Position numbers and translations under genes: made by a program. The notes beneath the pieces are model-generated. The model was not told where the DNA came from, did no database searches, and worked only from the letters and a program-made list of their open reading frames with translations. Shown here one piece after another: positions 5,094 to 25,637 of a stretch of DNA of 64,000 nt. Within the stretch, counting starts at the first letter, position 1; each line of letters opens with the position of its first letter. The stretch lies in assembly GCF_056746865.1 (NCBI RefSeq), contig NZ_CM163382.1; one strand, written 5' to 3'.

Positions 5094-5217
5094 AATAGTG
5101 CTTTTTACTAAGAGTTCCACTCCAGTTCCGGACTGCTCACGCCACGGTATTAGGCATATCCTATATAGCCCCTGGTGAGAGTCACCAGTTTCTTGATTAA
5201 ATAAAATGGAGTTTTAC

Positions 5218-5679
5218 ATGAAGGCTTTCAATAAGCTGTTTTCCCTCGTTGTTGCATCTGTTCTGGTTTTCTCTCTTGCTGGCTGCGGTGACAAAGAAGA
5301 ATCGAAAAAATTCAGCGCCAATCTGAACGGTACTGAAATTGCCATTACCTATGTCTACAAAGGTGACAAGGTGCTTAAGCAATCTTCTGAAACCAAAATT
5401 CAATTTGCCTCCATTGGTGCAACCACCAAAGAAGATGCTGCCAAGACACTTGAGCCGTTAAGCGCCAAATACAAAAACATCGCGGGTGTTGAAGAAAAAT
5501 TAACCTATACCGATACTTACGCGCAGGAAAACGTGACTATCGATATGGAAAAAGTGGATTTTAAAGCCCTGCAGGGTATTTCAGGAATCAACGTTTCTGC
5601 TGAAGATGCCAAAAAAGGTATCACTATGGCGCAAATGGAACTGGTGATGAAAGCCGCTGGTTTTAAAGAAGTGAAATAA
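5218..5679 (+). CDS. yehR: lipoprotein (DUF1307), lipobox LAGC
   Basis: ORF with signal peptide and LAGCGD lipobox; start chosen at MKAFNKLF. Confidence 0.75.
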   Translation: MKAFNKLFSLVVASVLVFSLAGCGDKEESKKFSANLNGTEIAITYVYKGDKVLKQSSETKIQFASIGATTKEDAAKTLEPLSAKYKNIAGVEEKLTYTDTYAQENVTIDMEKVDFKALQGISGINVSAEDAKKGITMAQMELVMKAAGFKEVK

Positions 5680-13624: not shown

Positions 13625-15922
13625 TTACAGCAACTCAAACTCGCCTTTCTTAACGCGTGCGGAATCAGTGCCGATGAAGACATTGAACTTGCCAGGCTCG
13701 GCGTCATATTTCATCTGTTGATTCCAGAACTTCAGCGCCTCGATATCAATCGGGAAGCTGACGGTCTGAGTTTCGCCCGGTTTCAGGGTGATTTTCTCAA
13801 AGCCTTTCAGCTGCTTCACCGGACGACTCATGGAAGCCGTCACATCCTGCAAGTACATCTGCACTACCGTCGCCCCTTCGCGCTTACCGGTGTTCGTCAC
13901 CTGCACACTGGCGGTCACTTTGCCGTCACGCTTCATGGTCGGCGCAGAAAGTTTCACATCAGAGACGGTGAAAGTGGTGTAGCTCAGACCATAACCGAAC
14001 GGATACAGCGCCCCGTTAGCTTCATCAAAATAACGCGAAGTGTATTTGTTCGGCTTGTCGGCATTATACGGACGCCCGGTATTCAGATGGCTGTAGTACA
14101 CAGGGATCTGCCCGACAGAACGCGGGAAGGACATCGGTAGCTTACCGGACGGGTTGTAATCGCCAAACAATACATCGGCAATCGCATTACCCCCTTCCGT
14201 ACCCGCAAACCAGGTTTCCAGAATCGCATCAGCCTGCTGATCTTCTTTCACCAGCGCCAGCGGACGCCCATTCATCAGCACCAGCACCAGCGGTTTACCA
14301 GTGGCTTTCAACGCCGCAATCAAGTCACGTTGGCTTTGCGGAATAGTAATATCGGTACGGCTGGAGGCCTCGTGCGCCATCCCCTGAGCTTCACCGACCA
14401 CAGCCACCACCACATCAGATTGTTTCGCGGTTTGCACCGCTTCATCAATCATCTCTTGCGGCGAACGCGGATCGACTTTGACCGCCTCTTCATACTGATT
14501 CAGGAAATCGATAATGCCTTTGTCACTGGTGACGTTCGCCCCTTTGGCGTACAGCACTTTACCGTTTTCACCGACGGCATTTTTAATCCCGGTCAGTACG
14601 GTCACGGATTGATCGGCAACACCGGCTGCGGACCAGCTGCCCATCACGTCACGTTTACTGTCCGCCAGTGGCCCAACCACCGCAATGGTGGCCGATTTTT
14701 TCAGCGGTAACGTTTCGAGACGGTTTTTCAGCAACACCAGGCTTTCACGCGCCACTTCACGCGCTTCTTTGCGGTGCAGGCGGCTTTCGGCATTGGTATC
14801 CACCGGGTCAGACTCTTTCGGCCCCAAATGGCTGTATGGGTCGTTAAACAACCCCATATCATATTTAACGTTCAGTACATGACGGGTAGCGTCATCCAGC
14901 TCTTCCATCGTCACTTTGCCGGATTTGATCAACCCAGGCAGATACTTCGAGTAGTACTCGTCGCTCATACTCATGTTGATGCCGGATTTCAGCGCCACGC
15001 GCACCGCATCTTCCGGGTCTGCCGCCGTGCCATGTTTAATCAGCTCTTTGATTGCGCCGTGATCGGAAACGGTGATGCCTTTAAAGCCCCACTGGTCGCG
15101 CAGAACATCTTTCAGCAGCCATGAATCGGAGGTGGCTGGCGTGCCGTTCAGCGAGTTCAGCGCCACCATCACCGCGCCGCTGCCTGCGTCCAGCCCCGCT
15201 TTGTACGGCGGCATATAATCATTAAACAGGCGCTGCGGACTCATATCGACGGTGTTGTACTCTTTACCGCCTTCTACCGCACCGTATGCGGCAAAGTGTT
15301 TGACGCTGGTCATCACCGAGTAGCGATCTGCCGGACTTTTACCCTGCATCGCTTCCACCATGGTTTTACCCATTGTTGAAGTGAGATACGTATCTTCGCC
15401 AAAACCTTCGGAAGCACGTCCCCAGCGCGGATCGCGCGAGACATCGACCATCGGTGCCCAGGTCATATTCAGGCCATCATCTGCCGCTTCATAAGCAGAG
15501 ACACGCCCGACTGTTTTCACCGCATCGAGGTTAAAAGACGAGGCCAGGCCGAGGCTAATCGGGAACACCGTGCGCTGACCGTGCAGCACGTCGTAAGCAA
15601 AGAAAAGAGGAATTTTCAGGCGGCTTAATTCCATCACCTGATCCTGCATGGCGCGGATATCCTGACGGGTTACGGTGTTGAAAATCGCCCCAACCTGACC
15701 GTCTTTGATCATCTCGCGGATCGCCTCTTTCGGATTATCCGGGCCGACGCTGATTAAGCGCAGCTGACCAATTTTCTCATCAACTGTCATTTTCTTAAGC
15801 AGTTCGGTGACGAACGCATCCCGCGCTTCGGGCGTTAATGGATGGTTGCCGAATAAATCATCTGCCAGTGCTGGCTGCAGGGCCAGACTCACCGCGATTC
15901 CTACTGAACATAGCCATTTCAT
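13625..15922 (-). CDS. bglX: periplasmic beta-glucosidase (GH3)
   Basis: 765-aa ORF from MKWLCSVGIAVSLAL (signal peptide); GH3 family features. Confidence 0.9.
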   Translation of the reverse strand: MKWLCSVGIAVSLALQPALADDLFGNHPLTPEARDAFVTELLKKMTVDEKIGQLRLISVGPDNPKEAIREMIKDGQVGAIFNTVTRQDIRAMQDQVMELSRLKIPLFFAYDVLHGQRTVFPISLGLASSFNLDAVKTVGRVSAYEAADDGLNMTWAPMVDVSRDPRWGRASEGFGEDTYLTSTMGKTMVEAMQGKSPADRYSVMTSVKHFAAYGAVEGGKEYNTVDMSPQRLFNDYMPPYKAGLDAGSGAVMVALNSLNGTPATSDSWLLKDVLRDQWGFKGITVSDHGAIKELIKHGTAADPEDAVRVALKSGINMSMSDEYYSKYLPGLIKSGKVTMEELDDATRHVLNVKYDMGLFNDPYSHLGPKESDPVDTNAESRLHRKEAREVARESLVLLKNRLETLPLKKSATIAVVGPLADSKRDVMGSWSAAGVADQSVTVLTGIKNAVGENGKVLYAKGANVTSDKGIIDFLNQYEEAVKVDPRSPQEMIDEAVQTAKQSDVVVAVVGEAQGMAHEASSRTDITIPQSQRDLIAALKATGKPLVLVLMNGRPLALVKEDQQADAILETWFAGTEGGNAIADVLFGDYNPSGKLPMSFPRSVGQIPVYYSHLNTGRPYNADKPNKYTSRYFDEANGALYPFGYGLSYTTFTVSDVKLSAPTMKRDGKVTASVQVTNTGKREGATVVQMYLQDVTASMSRPVKQLKGFEKITLKPGETQTVSFPIDIEALKFWNQQMKYDAEPGKFNVFIGTDSARVKKGEFELL

Positions 15923-21244: not shown

Positions 21245-22681
21245 TCAGCGTTTGTAACCCCCGCCCAACGCACCAGTGAGTTGAATGGAGGCATCCAGCC
21301 ACTGCCCTTGCAATAACAGGCCATTGGCCCGCTCGCGAAGCGCCGGGATTCTGGCTTCGCTGACGCGGGAACCGGCAATGATGCCCGCGTTAAAGCGCGC
21401 CTGCGCAAGACCTACTACACGCAAGGCATCGCGCTCAATTTGCGCCTGATGCTGGTTTTTCTCCGCCAGTGTCTGAACCTGACTGGCTGCCCGCGCCACG
21501 TCATTCACCGCTTCAACCACCGCTTTGTTGTAGCTGGCGATAGACAAGTTGCTTTCGGCTTTTGCGATATCGAGGTTGGCGTTAAGACGACCACTATCGA
21601 AAATGGGTAGCGTCAGGCCTGCCGTAACGCCCATTTGCTGCGCGGAATGACGGAACAGATCGCTTAAGTGCAACGCATCCTGTTGCAGGAAGGCCATCAG
21701 GTTGATGTCAGGATAAAATGCCGCTTTTGCCGCATCAATGGTGCTTAGCGATGACTCAACGTACCAGTGCGCCGCCTGCAAATCTGCCCGCCGGGCCAGT
21801 AAGGAGTACCCCAGTTCATCAGGAAGCTGGCTTGCCACTTTCGGCAACGCGACCGGTTTAAGCTTCAGTGACTTTGTCTGGTGATTTGTGAGTGCATTTA
21901 ACCGTGCCTCAATAATTTTCATTTTCCCCGCGACATCGTTGAGCTGCTGCCGGGTTTTGCTGGCATTAATATCGGTTTCCACACCTTCAACTGAAGAAGT
22001 AATCCCGTTCTGATATAGCTGGCGATCGGTGGCGATAATGGTGTTCTGCTCTTTTTCGATTTGCTGTAAGACAGTGTTTAACGCCGCCTGGGTTTGCCAC
22101 TCCCAGTACAGACGGGCTACGCTGCCAGCCAGCAATTGGCGGGTTTGCTCGCGTTCCGCCGCCCGTGCTTTAACCGTACCCAGGCGAGCAGTAACCTCCG
22201 CCCGATTCTTTCCCCAGATATCGAGATGCCAGCCCGCCGTTAAGCCAAAAGTACCGTTGGTGTACCACGGACCGGTCGTACCTGCGGCAGGATCGTTCAG
22301 AGCAAACGGCCCCATTAACCCTTCTGCCGACATTTTTTGCCGCTCCATATCCGCAGAAAAGTCGATCTGCGGACCATCCTGAGTGGCAACTGCCTTCGCC
22401 TGGGCTTCAGCCAGCTGAATGCGCTGTTCAGCCACCTGCATATCCGGTGCGTTCTGTAGTGCATTGTTAATTAATGAAGTGAGTTGATTATCGTGATACT
22501 CCAGCCACCATTGGCTGTCTGGCCAACCATTTTTCAGCGCCGTGGGTAATGCGGTGTCAACTTGTGAAGCGGGCGTTTGCTGGCTTAACGCCTGGCGGGT
22601 TTCATGCATAGGCGCACACCCGGCCAGCATCAGTAACAGCGGAAAACAGGCGATGGCGGGATAAAAGGAATCACGATTCAT
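21245..22681 (-). CDS. mdtQ: outer-membrane efflux lipoprotein (OprM/NodT family); reading frame intact here
   Basis: 478-aa ORF from MNRDSFYPAIACFPLLLMLAGC (lipobox) with no internal stop or frameshift. Confidence 0.75.
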   Translation of the reverse strand: MNRDSFYPAIACFPLLLMLAGCAPMHETRQALSQQTPASQVDTALPTALKNGWPDSQWWLEYHDNQLTSLINNALQNAPDMQVAEQRIQLAEAQAKAVATQDGPQIDFSADMERQKMSAEGLMGPFALNDPAAGTTGPWYTNGTFGLTAGWHLDIWGKNRAEVTARLGTVKARAAEREQTRQLLAGSVARLYWEWQTQAALNTVLQQIEKEQNTIIATDRQLYQNGITSSVEGVETDINASKTRQQLNDVAGKMKIIEARLNALTNHQTKSLKLKPVALPKVASQLPDELGYSLLARRADLQAAHWYVESSLSTIDAAKAAFYPDINLMAFLQQDALHLSDLFRHSAQQMGVTAGLTLPIFDSGRLNANLDIAKAESNLSIASYNKAVVEAVNDVARAASQVQTLAEKNQHQAQIERDALRVVGLAQARFNAGIIAGSRVSEARIPALRERANGLLLQGQWLDASIQLTGALGGGYKR

Positions 22682-22904: not shown

Positions 22905-22988
22905 ATGAAAATTATACTCTGGGCTGTATTGATTATTTTCCTGATTGGGCTACTGGTGGTGACTGGCGTATTTAAGATGATATTTTAA
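22905..22988 (+). CDS. yohP: small membrane protein (27 aa)
   Basis: Short ORF MKIILWAVLIIFLIGLLVVTGVFKMIF with upstream AAGGAA RBS. Confidence 0.55.
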   Translation: MKIILWAVLIIFLIGLLVVTGVFKMIF

Positions 22989-23360
22989 AATTAATTAATG
23001 TCATCAGATCCGAAAATAACGAGAATATTTCAGTCTCTCATCCTGTTGCGCTCCTGTCATGTGCATTGCTTCATATAATCACTGGCGCAAGGAGCGCGCA
23101 GGGGGCGACCAATCGCCGCCGCCCCCTGCACCCCCGGGCTCTGGCGAACAAAATCGCCGCTGCGCGGTGCCCTCGGCTTATCCCTTACGGCTACCGGGTC
23201 GGGCGCGAGGTAACATCCCTGTAAAACGCGCCCTCAGCCCACATCCATGTGGGCTGCCCCGGCCTTCGGGGAACGCCTCGGCGATTTTGACGCCACCAAA
23301 CAACCGTGCGGCCTATTGATAAAGAGCTAACACATTGTCAAAAAACATCACTATGGTTTT

Positions 23361-24308
23361 TTAGAGTTTCTCGATATCAATTGCCTGAATAGCCCTTGCA
23401 ATATCAGGGGAATTATTCAACACCCGAACATGCTGAAATAATTCCGTTGCTTCATCGTATTCTTTACGCAAATAACTCAACCACTGTTTAATCCGCGCAA
23501 CGTGATATAACCCGGTATCGCCCTGCTTTTCCAGACGGGTATATTTTTGCAGCAAAGCAACTACCTCCGGCCACGGCATTCGCGGTTCGTTATATTTTAC
23601 CACCCGGCTCAGGTTGGGAATATTGAGCGCCCCGCGACCAATCATCACTGCGTCACAGCCGCTGATCGCCATGCATTGTTGCGCGCTCTGCCAGTCCCAG
23701 ATTTCACCGTTGGCAATCACCGGAATATTCAGCCGCTGGCGAATCTCGCCAATCGCCTGCCAGTCAATATGCTCCGCGCGGTAACCCTGCTCTTTCGTCC
23801 GCCCATGCACCACCAGCTCTGTAGCACCAGCCTGTTGAACCGCATCGGCGATTTCAAATTTCTTCTCACCGCTGTCCCAGCCCAGACGCACTTTTACGCT
23901 GACGGGCAAATGCGCCGGTACAACTTCACGCATCGCTTTTGCCCCCTGGTAGATGAGTTCAGGATCTTTGAGTAACGTCGCGCCGCCGCCGCTACCGTTA
24001 ACCGTTTTCGACGGGCAGCCGCAATTGAGATCCACACCCCAGGAACCTAACTCGACCGCACGGGCGGCATTCTCTGCCAGCCATTGTGGGAACTGACCTA
24101 ACAACTGCACGCGCACCAGCGTACCGGAAGGTGTCCGGCTGGCATTTTGTAGCTCAGGGCAAATGCGATGAAAGACTTTTATTGGCAGCAGTTGATCCAC
24201 CACGCGGACAAACTCGGTGATGCACAGATCGTAGTCGTTAACTTCGGTCAGCAATTCACGCACCAGAGAGTCGAGTACACCCTCCATCGGAGCCAGTAAC
24301 ACACGCAT
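23361..24308 (-). CDS. dusC: tRNA-dihydrouridine synthase C
   Basis: 315-aa ORF from [15 protein letters not shown]... (Dus TIM-barrel family). Confidence 0.9.

Positions 24309-24510: not shown

Positions 24511-25637
<1,127 letters not shown>

Follow-up and report, generated by a model that had tools for sequence, protein, structure and literature searches.

What is the GC-rich, structured stretch that separates the convergent genes yohP and dusC? The question was raised by an initial annotation of a 64,000-nucleotide stretch of contig NZ_CM163382.1 (NCBI RefSeq assembly GCF_056746865.1; the whole stretch is called the window here), which took positions 23040-23320 to be a candidate repeat element or structured small RNA. 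We consider it very probable (about 85%) that 23045-23317 is the repeat TRIP1c, identical with the replication risk sequence (RRS) RRS-dusC, a DNA element that acts in replication and contains no gene. The element is already known and both of its names have been published, so that the observation itself is not new.

Identity of the element

The family was named TRIP1 by Rudd in 1999, and its member TRIP1c occupies 2229122-2229394 of NC_000913.3 (Li et al. 2024, PMC10888264); a window position is obtained by subtracting 2,206,077 from the K-12 coordinate. The window aligned with K-12 TRIP1c at 99% identity over 310 bp (positions 5109-5418 of the K-12 locus L005) and with K-12 TRIP1a at 93.75% identity over 272 bp. 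A sequence counts as TRIP1 if BLAST matches it over 80% or more of the length with K-12 TRIP1a, 1b or 1c (Li et al. 2024, PMC10888264). The window element gave such a match, and it lies between yohG/yohP and yohI (dusC), which is the placement of the TRIP1c type. The locus and the K-12-type (forward) orientation are the same, and no difference of substance from TRIP1 was noticed.

The 222-bp core has been named the "replication risk sequence", RRS-dusC, and stated to be Rudd's TRIP1 (Pham et al. 2023 PMC10287960; 2024 PMC11194060), and it is one of the two RRS of E. coli K-12 (Pham et al. PMC10287960, PMC11194060; Kusi-Appauh et al. 2026 preprint PMC13308219). In the window, the 222-bp block shared by the dusC and lysO copies was found with near-perfect identity (Table 1), and the published G-quadruplex (G4) motif of RRS, GGGGGTGCAGGGGGCGGCGG, was matched exactly at a single site in the 64 kb, with 0 such matches expected by chance. 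The core, the exact motif and the predicted location of the G4 strand on the lagging-strand template all agree with RRS-dusC. It was also observed that the 301 bp of 23040-23340 are 100% identical to E. coli strain 118UI, where RefSeq carries no annotation under the match.

The setting described by the initial annotation was borne out. The gene ends (yohP at 22988 and the dusC stop codon at 23361-23363) leave a convergent gap of 372 bp, and the GC content in 100-bp windows was 0.63-0.71 across 23050-23300 against 0.33-0.39 in the flanks. All three inverted repeats that had been listed were located at the element, namely GCAGGGGGCG/CGCCCCCTGC (23098-23107 and 23120-23129), CAGCCCACAT/ATGTGGGCTG (23235-23244 and 23247-23256) and CCCCGG-CCTT-CGGGG (23257-23271), together with a further long-range pair of 16 nt that joins 23149-23164 to 23274-23289. 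The perfect TATAAT hexamer is likewise present at 23074-23079, and it lies inside the most variable, AT-rich loop of the element. The extent given at the outset, 23040-23320, was corrected to a unit of 23045-23317 with a core of about 222 bp. The aligned copies place the repeat unit at ~23044-23317, with a weaker common extension on either side.

Secondary structure and its conservation

As single-stranded DNA, 23045-23317 was predicted to fold at -80 kcal/mol on the minus strand (z = -6.4) and at -75.7 kcal/mol on the plus strand (z = -5.4), and in both cases 0 of 200 shuffles folded as well. Among 19 distinct Escherichia copies, 76 pairs predicted on the G strand had 99.2% of their cells paired, and 7 of these pairs showed compensatory double changes. 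When eight Klebsiella copies were added (24-copy alignment), 77 pairs had 99.1% of cells paired and 15 were compensated, a number that was reached by 0 of 500 shuffles, while slid controls gave 0-3. In these 24 copies the AUGGAU loop stayed fixed while its own stem covaried. The base-paired fold is under evolutionary conservation, as seen from the compensatory changes across the E. coli and Klebsiella copies. Over the 58 pairs common to the predictions for both strands, wobble/mismatch cells numbered 8/5 for the G strand and 4/9 for the C strand, which is too close to call the strand.

In two K. aerogenes copies (L116 and L117), the region aligned to 23098-23136 has both G5 runs interrupted (GGGAG...GAGGG), with matching C-to-T changes on the opposite arm. 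Since these copies break the G runs and yet compensate the opposite arm, the hairpin has been preserved by evolution, and the quadruplex tract is weakened in them. The positions of these structures, with the neighbouring genes, are collected in Table 1.

Table 1. Features of the TRIP1c/RRS-dusC locus in the window.
Feature	Position	Strand	Basis or remark
yohP	22905..22988	+	flanking gene, 27 aa
TRIP1c whole unit, 273 bp	23045..23317		K-12 alignment and published TRIP1c coordinates
Left hairpin GCGCTCCT/AGGAGCGC (repeat I5, helix 13)	23048..23097		variable AT-rich loop with TATAAT; loop is the least conserved part
RRS-dusC core, ~222 bp	23080..~23301	G-rich strand is -	near-identity with TRIP1a (lysO copy) in a pairwise alignment of the two K-12 repeats
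Hairpin with G4 tract, 10-12 bp (helix 11)	23098..23129		arms 100% complementary; 4 compensated pairs
Published RRS G4 motif GGGGGTGCAGGGGGCGGCGG	23116..23135	-	exact match
TwoAYGGAY-like core: P1, multi-stem junction, two ANGGAY-loop hairpins	23132..23302	-	RF01731 and model R1
Closing stem P1, first arm (I1)	23142..23165		~20 pairs, 99-100% of cells paired, 3 pairs compensated
Second hairpin GGGCGCG...CGCGCCC	23201..23233	-	loop AGGGAU on the minus strand; other copies A(G/A/C)GGA(U/C)
Hairpin with loop AUGGAU on the minus strand (helix 7)	23235..23256	-	loop invariant in 24/24 copies; 3 compensated pairs
Closing stem P1, second arm	23273..23295		pairs with 23142-23165; basis as for the first arm
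dusC	23361..24308	-	flanking convergent gene

Elsewhere in the window, mdtQ (21245-22681) is an intact open frame, as it is in strain 118UI, and it is a pseudogene in K-12 MG1655, which shows that the window does not come from K-12 itself.

Comparison with other elements and rejected candidates

The initial annotation had found no credible coding frame. As a consequence of the high GC content, long frames of 80-94 codons do occur, in many cases on both strands; none of them is conserved between copies, since these differ by 1-nt indels, and RefSeq annotates nothing there. A coding role was therefore rejected. A promoter at the TATAAT hexamer was also set aside, since the hexamer lacks a -35 partner and is absent as a conserved feature from TRIP1a, TRIP1d and Klebsiella. 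Within the element, nothing resembling the promoter or terminator of an independent small-RNA gene was found. Of the proposed "structured small RNA", the first word is upheld by covariation, and the small RNA finds no support, as neither promoter nor terminator was found in the gap. Rfam matches to AgvB (23011-23071) and RyhB (24547-24629) had E values of 0.4-0.8, far below the gathering scores, and were attributed to chance. A miniature inverted-repeat transposable element (MITE) was rejected as well, because no inverted repeat joins the ends, no duplication was seen in the flanks of 23 copies, and the element-free spacers are unrelated.

Like REP and BIME sequences, the element is GC-rich, palindromic, intergenic and multi-copy, and often lies at the 3' ends of genes. 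REP units are, however, palindromes of ~35 bp, and the REP-derived Rfam model naRNA4 (RF02564), which does match REPs in loci L063, L007, L109 and L111, gave no match in 23030-23335 at E values up to 10. The lack of a REP or ERIC match that had been reported at the outset stands, and the element belongs to the separately named TRIP1 family; the suggested label "Box C/RIP-type" was wrong. The Box C unit measures ~56 bp, whereas TRIP1 copies align end to end over ~270 bp. RIP is an IHF site flanked by REPs, while the element has no REPs (no search for an IHF site was made).

Copies, loci and orientation in E. coli

A megablast search with 23040-23340 was positive in 5,425 of 5,426 complete E. 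coli genomes, at 15,527 places, with 1 to 8 places per genome (median 3); one chromosome-sized E. coli record in PLSDB had 10. The initial annotation had named multiple dispersed copies as the mark of a plain repeat, and such copies are what the BLAST search of complete E. coli genomes revealed; together with the Klebsiella homologues described below, they settle that the stretch is a repeat element. The spacers that carry copies include yohP-dusC (window, L001 and K-12 L005), aqpZ-lysO (L002, L003), sstT-alx (L004) and putP-efeU (L007), so that the paralogues TRIP1a (aqpZ-lysO), 1b (putP-efeU) and 1d (alx-sstT) were recovered. The K-12 lysO copy is situated between two genes of the same direction, 158 bp upstream of lysO.

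To count orientations, 136-bp queries specific for each junction were searched in the 5,426 complete E. coli genomes. At the dusC locus the K-12-type orientation was recorded in 3,419 genomes (63%) and the reversed one in 2,002 (37%); at the lysO locus the corresponding numbers were 4,116 (76%) and 1,294 (24%). The spacers of reversed alleles are unrelated to the forward ones on both sides, and the 3' end of dusC differs. It was also noticed that in reversed alleles (L006 and L008, 2001-2265; L003, 2501-2766) the published G4 strand falls on the leading-strand template. In strains such as SK1144 and 4/1-1, a forward lysO copy and a reversed dusC copy lie on one strand of the record and hence form direct repeats. 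Direct-repeat records are NZ_AP018784.2, NZ_CP022730.1, NZ_CP023844.1 and NZ_CP023826.1 (hits H36-H39 and H41-H44). Variable orientation of TRIP1 has already been reported (Li et al. 2024, PMC10888264); the orientation counts and the direct-repeat configuration are results of the present analysis.

Several copies depart from the full-length form. The 42-kb plasmid pZ1323HEC0475-2 (L009, 2923-3054) bears a chromosomal hcp-lysO-aqpZ-ybjD segment, and its TRIP1a copy has lost an internal stretch that was bounded by the direct repeats CCCCGG(G)C. Two copies from Escherichia sp. (L102 and L101) are also internally deleted, one lacking the AUGGAU hairpin and the other a part of the left hairpin. The alx-sstT spacer of K-12 (L106, 3047-3444) holds a different GC-rich repeat, GGGAGAGGGTCGGGGTGAGGG...CCCTCACCCTAACCCTCTCCC, where other strains have TRIP1d (L004, 2246-2860). 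This other repeat looks like Box C. The alx-sstT spacer behaves like an exchangeable cassette and not like a simple insertion site.

Distribution beyond E. coli

The dusC-yohP spacer of E. fergusonii measures 43 bp and contains a terminator-like hairpin and no element (L112 and L113, 2440-2482); in Citrobacter it measures 103 bp, is REP-like and is likewise free of the element (L114 and L115, 2446-2548). Searches of PLSDB by BLAST disclosed homologues in Klebsiella pneumoniae, K. aerogenes and K. variicola that are 82-87% identical to the E. coli copies and 92-97% identical among themselves, forming a full-length family (L109-L111, L116-L120). One chromosome-sized K. pneumoniae record had 13-14 places. 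At all six of the six annotated Klebsiella loci that were fetched, the element lies between convergent genes, and locus L109 holds tandem copies (2050-2218 and 2487-2655) ~440 bp apart. The published view that the position of RRS is strongly conserved in enterobacteria is qualified by the empty sites, the 37% reversal and the many Klebsiella loci.

A scan with the exact 18-mer GGCGAACAAAATCGCCGC, covering one genome for each of 100,044 species, appeared to restrict the element to Escherichia. This restriction was rejected as an artefact of the pattern, because the Klebsiella copies differ within GGCGAACAAAATCGCCGC. The RRS of Kluyvera has been described as nearly 100% identical to that of E. 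coli (Pham et al. 2023 PMC10287960), whereas the species-representative Kluyvera genomes gave no match to this 18-mer, which is invariant in all 23 Escherichia copies. The disagreement may mean that the representative genomes are without the element, or that database records are mislabelled.

Some PLSDB records are of chromosome size, such as CP125156.1 (5.37 Mb), NZ_CP141089.1 (4.94 Mb), NZ_CP134663.1 (4.90 Mb) and NZ_OL790696.1 (4.80 Mb). As chromosomes are filed there as plasmids, most plasmid matches to the element are chromosomal DNA; all 34 matching records were typed as non-mobilizable. E. coli TRIP1 was also seen in two foreign assemblies, a metagenome-assembled genome labelled "Proteobacteria bacterium" (L023) and a 583-bp contig of a Bacillus sp. 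assembly with a coverage of 0.7 (L068). Each has flanks from two different E. coli loci, which looks like contamination, chimeric assembly across the repeat, or both.

Resemblance to the TwoAYGGAY motif

An Rfam scan had been recommended by the initial annotation. It gave a single family near significance, TwoAYGGAY (RF01731), always on the G strand and over the full length of the model, with 28.5 bits on the window (E = 0.014 in a 306-bp search) against a gathering score of 43, so that the threshold was not reached. Other E. coli copies scored 26.1-30.6 bits, and the Klebsiella copies gave no RF01731 match at E values up to 10. The large closing stem P1 round the two hairpins is present (Table 1). 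Loop 1 reads AUGGAU in every copy, and loop 2 reads AGGGAU, AGGGAC, AAGGAC or ACGGAC where RF01731 wants AYGGAY; AGGGAC and AGGGAU loops also occur in Weinberg's own alignment (Weinberg et al. 2010, PMC2864571). The same alignment includes at least five dispersed copies from Psychromonas ingrahamii, whose hairpins GCACAUGGAUGUGC and GUACAGGGACGUA nearly match those of TRIP1. TwoAYGGAY, a member of Rfam since 2010, is present in gut Clostridia, gamma-proteobacteria and many environmental bacteria. In calling it an RNA, its authors went no further than "probably" (Weinberg et al. 2010, PMC2864571).

The reciprocal comparison was made with a covariance model of the TRIP1 core, R1 (24 sequences, 170 positions, 57 pairs), on metagenome loci picked by the two-loop pattern, in which 14 sites are confirmed at the Rfam gathering level. 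With filters off, R1 matched all 14 of these sites, in agreement with Rfam as to coordinates and strand, with 21.5-42.5 bits (E 2.6e-7 to 6e-3), and the next-best match in those loci had 12.9 bits. Locus L125 scored 42.9 bits by Rfam and 46.5 bits by R1 over the full length. Loci that had the pattern and no Rfam support reached at most 12.6 bits at the pattern, and as background the best R1 match anywhere had 16.4 bits and the best non-self match in the 64-kb window 15.5 bits. In a joint alignment of TRIP1 and TwoAYGGAY, 93.5% of cells were paired compared with 61.5% when shuffled and at most 41% when slid, and 52 of 57 pairs were compensated; these figures, like the R1 scores, are to be read with the facts that the loci were chosen by a pattern containing both loops, that the alignment was fitted to the model and that the calibration is rough.

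The two share a long P1, a multi-stem junction and two adjacent ANGGAY-loop hairpins. In unpaired sequence they have in common a GCCGA that follows P1, a GAG that separates the hairpins, a GAGGGnACC with a small hairpin behind it and, within P1, an AGAG bulge. The matches are reciprocal, and both are dispersed multi-copy elements. They differ in that TRIP1 is far more GC-rich, has A(G/A/C)GGAY instead of AYGGAY as its second loop, and carries a G-rich hairpin 3' of the core that the environmental elements lack; no G4-like tracts were found beside the environmental TwoAYGGAY-like elements. TwoAYGGAY is filed as an RNA whose function is not known, whereas RRS has been characterised by experiment as a DNA element. 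On balance, we give about even odds to the RRS/TRIP1 core being a GC-rich enterobacterial member of the orphan TwoAYGGAY class. Our search found no published mention of such a link.

The 3' flanks of the environmental cores (L125, 200-326; L154, 579-640; L190, 2350-2417; L197, 1990-2074) contain two more conserved hairpins, for example GGTTACTTTTGG...CCAAAAGTGACC and next CCGTCAGGGCGG, and the Psychromonas copies in Weinberg's alignment are built likewise. Given these extra 3' hairpins, the Rfam motif may represent no more than the 5' portion of a longer element. At that position TRIP1 also shows two hairpins, which differ in sequence. Elements of the TwoAYGGAY type also lie often less than 70 nt from a contig end or twice on one contig (among L121-L200: L138, 9-46; L147, 4-41; L159, 5-42; L126, L151, L197 and L200), and some of the pairs on the same contig are inverted, as is typical of dispersed repeats at which assemblies break.

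Discussion

The effects of RRS have been demonstrated by others in K-12 and in vitro, and they comprise polymerase block, gap formation, orientation dependence, conditional essentiality and altered supercoiling. RecA and SSB accumulate on the lagging-strand template beside each RRS, and deletion of the RRS abolishes these peaks (Pham et al. 2023 PMC10287960). In vitro the G4 strand is a block to Pol I, II and IV, and in vivo it slows Pol III; an RRS that is moved elsewhere creates a new peak there; an engineered inverted RRS gives no peak in vivo and yet supports viability. Both RRS can be deleted together only with a large compensating amplification, and supercoiling is then altered genome-wide. 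In a reconstituted replisome, in which there is no transcription, almost every passage leaves a gap if the lagging-strand template is the G4 strand, against about two thirds of them if it is the C strand. The RRS lies ~650 kb from dif, with a second copy on the other side (RRS papers PMC10287960, PMC11194060, PMC13308219); the 64-kb window contains no dif site.

In the window, plus-strand GC skew was negative in 7 of 8 bins of 8 kb, and the gene order around the element is that of K-12 at 2.229 Mb. On these two grounds the minus strand would be the lagging-strand template, which is the native orientation of RRS. The window copy probably behaves as the K-12 copy does in triggering gaps and loading RecA and SSB. 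The proposed sequence of events is as follows. The locus would lie on the left replichore, with forks travelling toward lower coordinates, so that the minus strand, the G-rich one that bears GGGGGTGCAGGGGGCGGCGG, would serve as the lagging-strand template. While transiently single-stranded in the Okazaki cycle, this strand may fold into a compact set of hairpins and a G-quadruplex. The folded template would block the lagging-strand polymerase, synthesis would restart downstream, and a transient gap of up to ~2 kb, loaded with SSB and RecA, would be left behind. This gap may provide a topological swivel close to the border of the Ter macrodomain, as the RRS authors propose.

Some of our own observations weigh against this reading of the repeat as a DNA element of replication. 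The dusC and lysO copies are naturally reversed, relative to their flanking genes, in 2,002 and 1,294 of the 5,426 genomes. Some strains hold the two copies as direct and not inverted repeats, which contradicts the claim that there is always at least one inverted pair, unless additional copies make up for it. The dusC-yohP site is empty in E. fergusonii and Citrobacter, and Klebsiella has 13-14 copies per genome. The core resembles a motif that Rfam files as RNA. The compensatory changes, those in K. aerogenes among them, back a Watson-Crick hairpin round the G tract more than the quadruplex itself, whose preservation is less well supported.

Several of these points lend themselves to the reading that TRIP1 is primarily an intergenic repeat, dispersed and possibly mobile like REPs or MITEs, that its fold would promote its own spread or upkeep, and that the gaps are a side effect on which K-12 came to depend. 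It would account for copy numbers of 1-8 in complete E. coli genomes, 10 in one E. coli record of PLSDB and 13-14 in K. pneumoniae, for five or more occupied loci in E. coli, for both orientations at one locus, for the empty sister-taxon sites and for the tandem pair in L109. The position of all six annotated Klebsiella copies between convergent genes, like that of the window copy, and the frequent occurrence of TwoAYGGAY-like relatives at contig ends or twice per contig also point in this direction. Nevertheless, the hallmarks of mobility did not turn up, as no terminal inverted repeats, no target-site duplication and no associated transposase were found, and no clean pair of filled and empty sites exists among element-free spacers that differ throughout. 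We regard this reading as possible, though unlikely.

A structured non-coding RNA of the TwoAYGGAY class, encoded on the G-rich minus strand, for instance as a 3' extension of the dusC mRNA, would explain why fold and loops are kept, namely for a function of RNA or of RNA with protein. TwoAYGGAY is the sole near-significant Rfam family and always on the G strand, the TRIP1-built model recovers every Rfam-confirmed site tested, and the ANGGAY loops are constant while the stems covary; in the window, moreover, the G strand lies ~59 nt downstream of dusC in the sense orientation, and possible transcription of TRIP1 has been suggested (Li et al. 2024, PMC10888264). The difficulty is that neither a sigma-70 promoter nor an intrinsic terminator was found in the yohP-dusC gap, that the G strand of the K-12 lysO copy runs antisense to the genes on either side, and that a purified replisome produces gaps without transcription. 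The wobble pairs (8 vs 4) are indecisive as to the strand, and the RNA nature of TwoAYGGAY is itself a prediction ("probably", in the words of its authors). An RNA role is judged improbable; a literature search for transcripts in the yohP-dusC spacer yielded nothing relevant.

Last, the element might block transcription from both sides or stabilise the 3' ends of the converging yohP and dusC mRNAs, as could be imagined from its convergent setting here and at six of six annotated Klebsiella loci, from its very stable hairpins on both strands, from the lack of a canonical intrinsic terminator in the gap and from the 43-bp hairpin-type terminator that fills the same spacer in E. fergusonii, but we hold this to be very doubtful because no T-runs follow the hairpins, the K-12 lysO copy sits between genes of the same direction, and the conserved loops and multi-stem junction would be left unexplained.

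Conclusions

Since the function of RRS is already published, the identification of TRIP1c/RRS-dusC adds nothing new on E. coli. The side results are new, namely the possible link to TwoAYGGAY, the selection on hairpins and loops, the counts of naturally reversed alleles, the sites that lack the element and its expansion in Klebsiella. RRS is one of only two described bacterial sequences that program single-stranded DNA gaps in replication, and it affects chromosome topology. The other, according to the RRS authors, is the pilE G-quadruplex of Neisseria gonorrhoeae (PMC10287960, PMC11194060, PMC13308219), which, compared by description only, differs as a short single G4 for pilin antigenic variation from a 270-bp multi-hairpin repeat.

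The evolutionary evidence indicates that what is conserved in this family is a base-paired fold with two ANGGAY loops, beyond a G-quadruplex alone. The population data, with 37% of dusC and 24% of lysO copies reversed, empty sites in sister taxa and many copies in Klebsiella, place limits on the notion of relief valves arranged as a symmetric pair. If the link with TwoAYGGAY is true, there may be widespread DNA devices that fold as single strands and trigger replication gaps, or else the ANGGAY-loop fold of RRS would have a second role, through RNA or a bound protein, outside the G-quadruplex model. Gap-triggering elements would then extend far past the enterobacteria, or an RNA or protein partner would be indicated.

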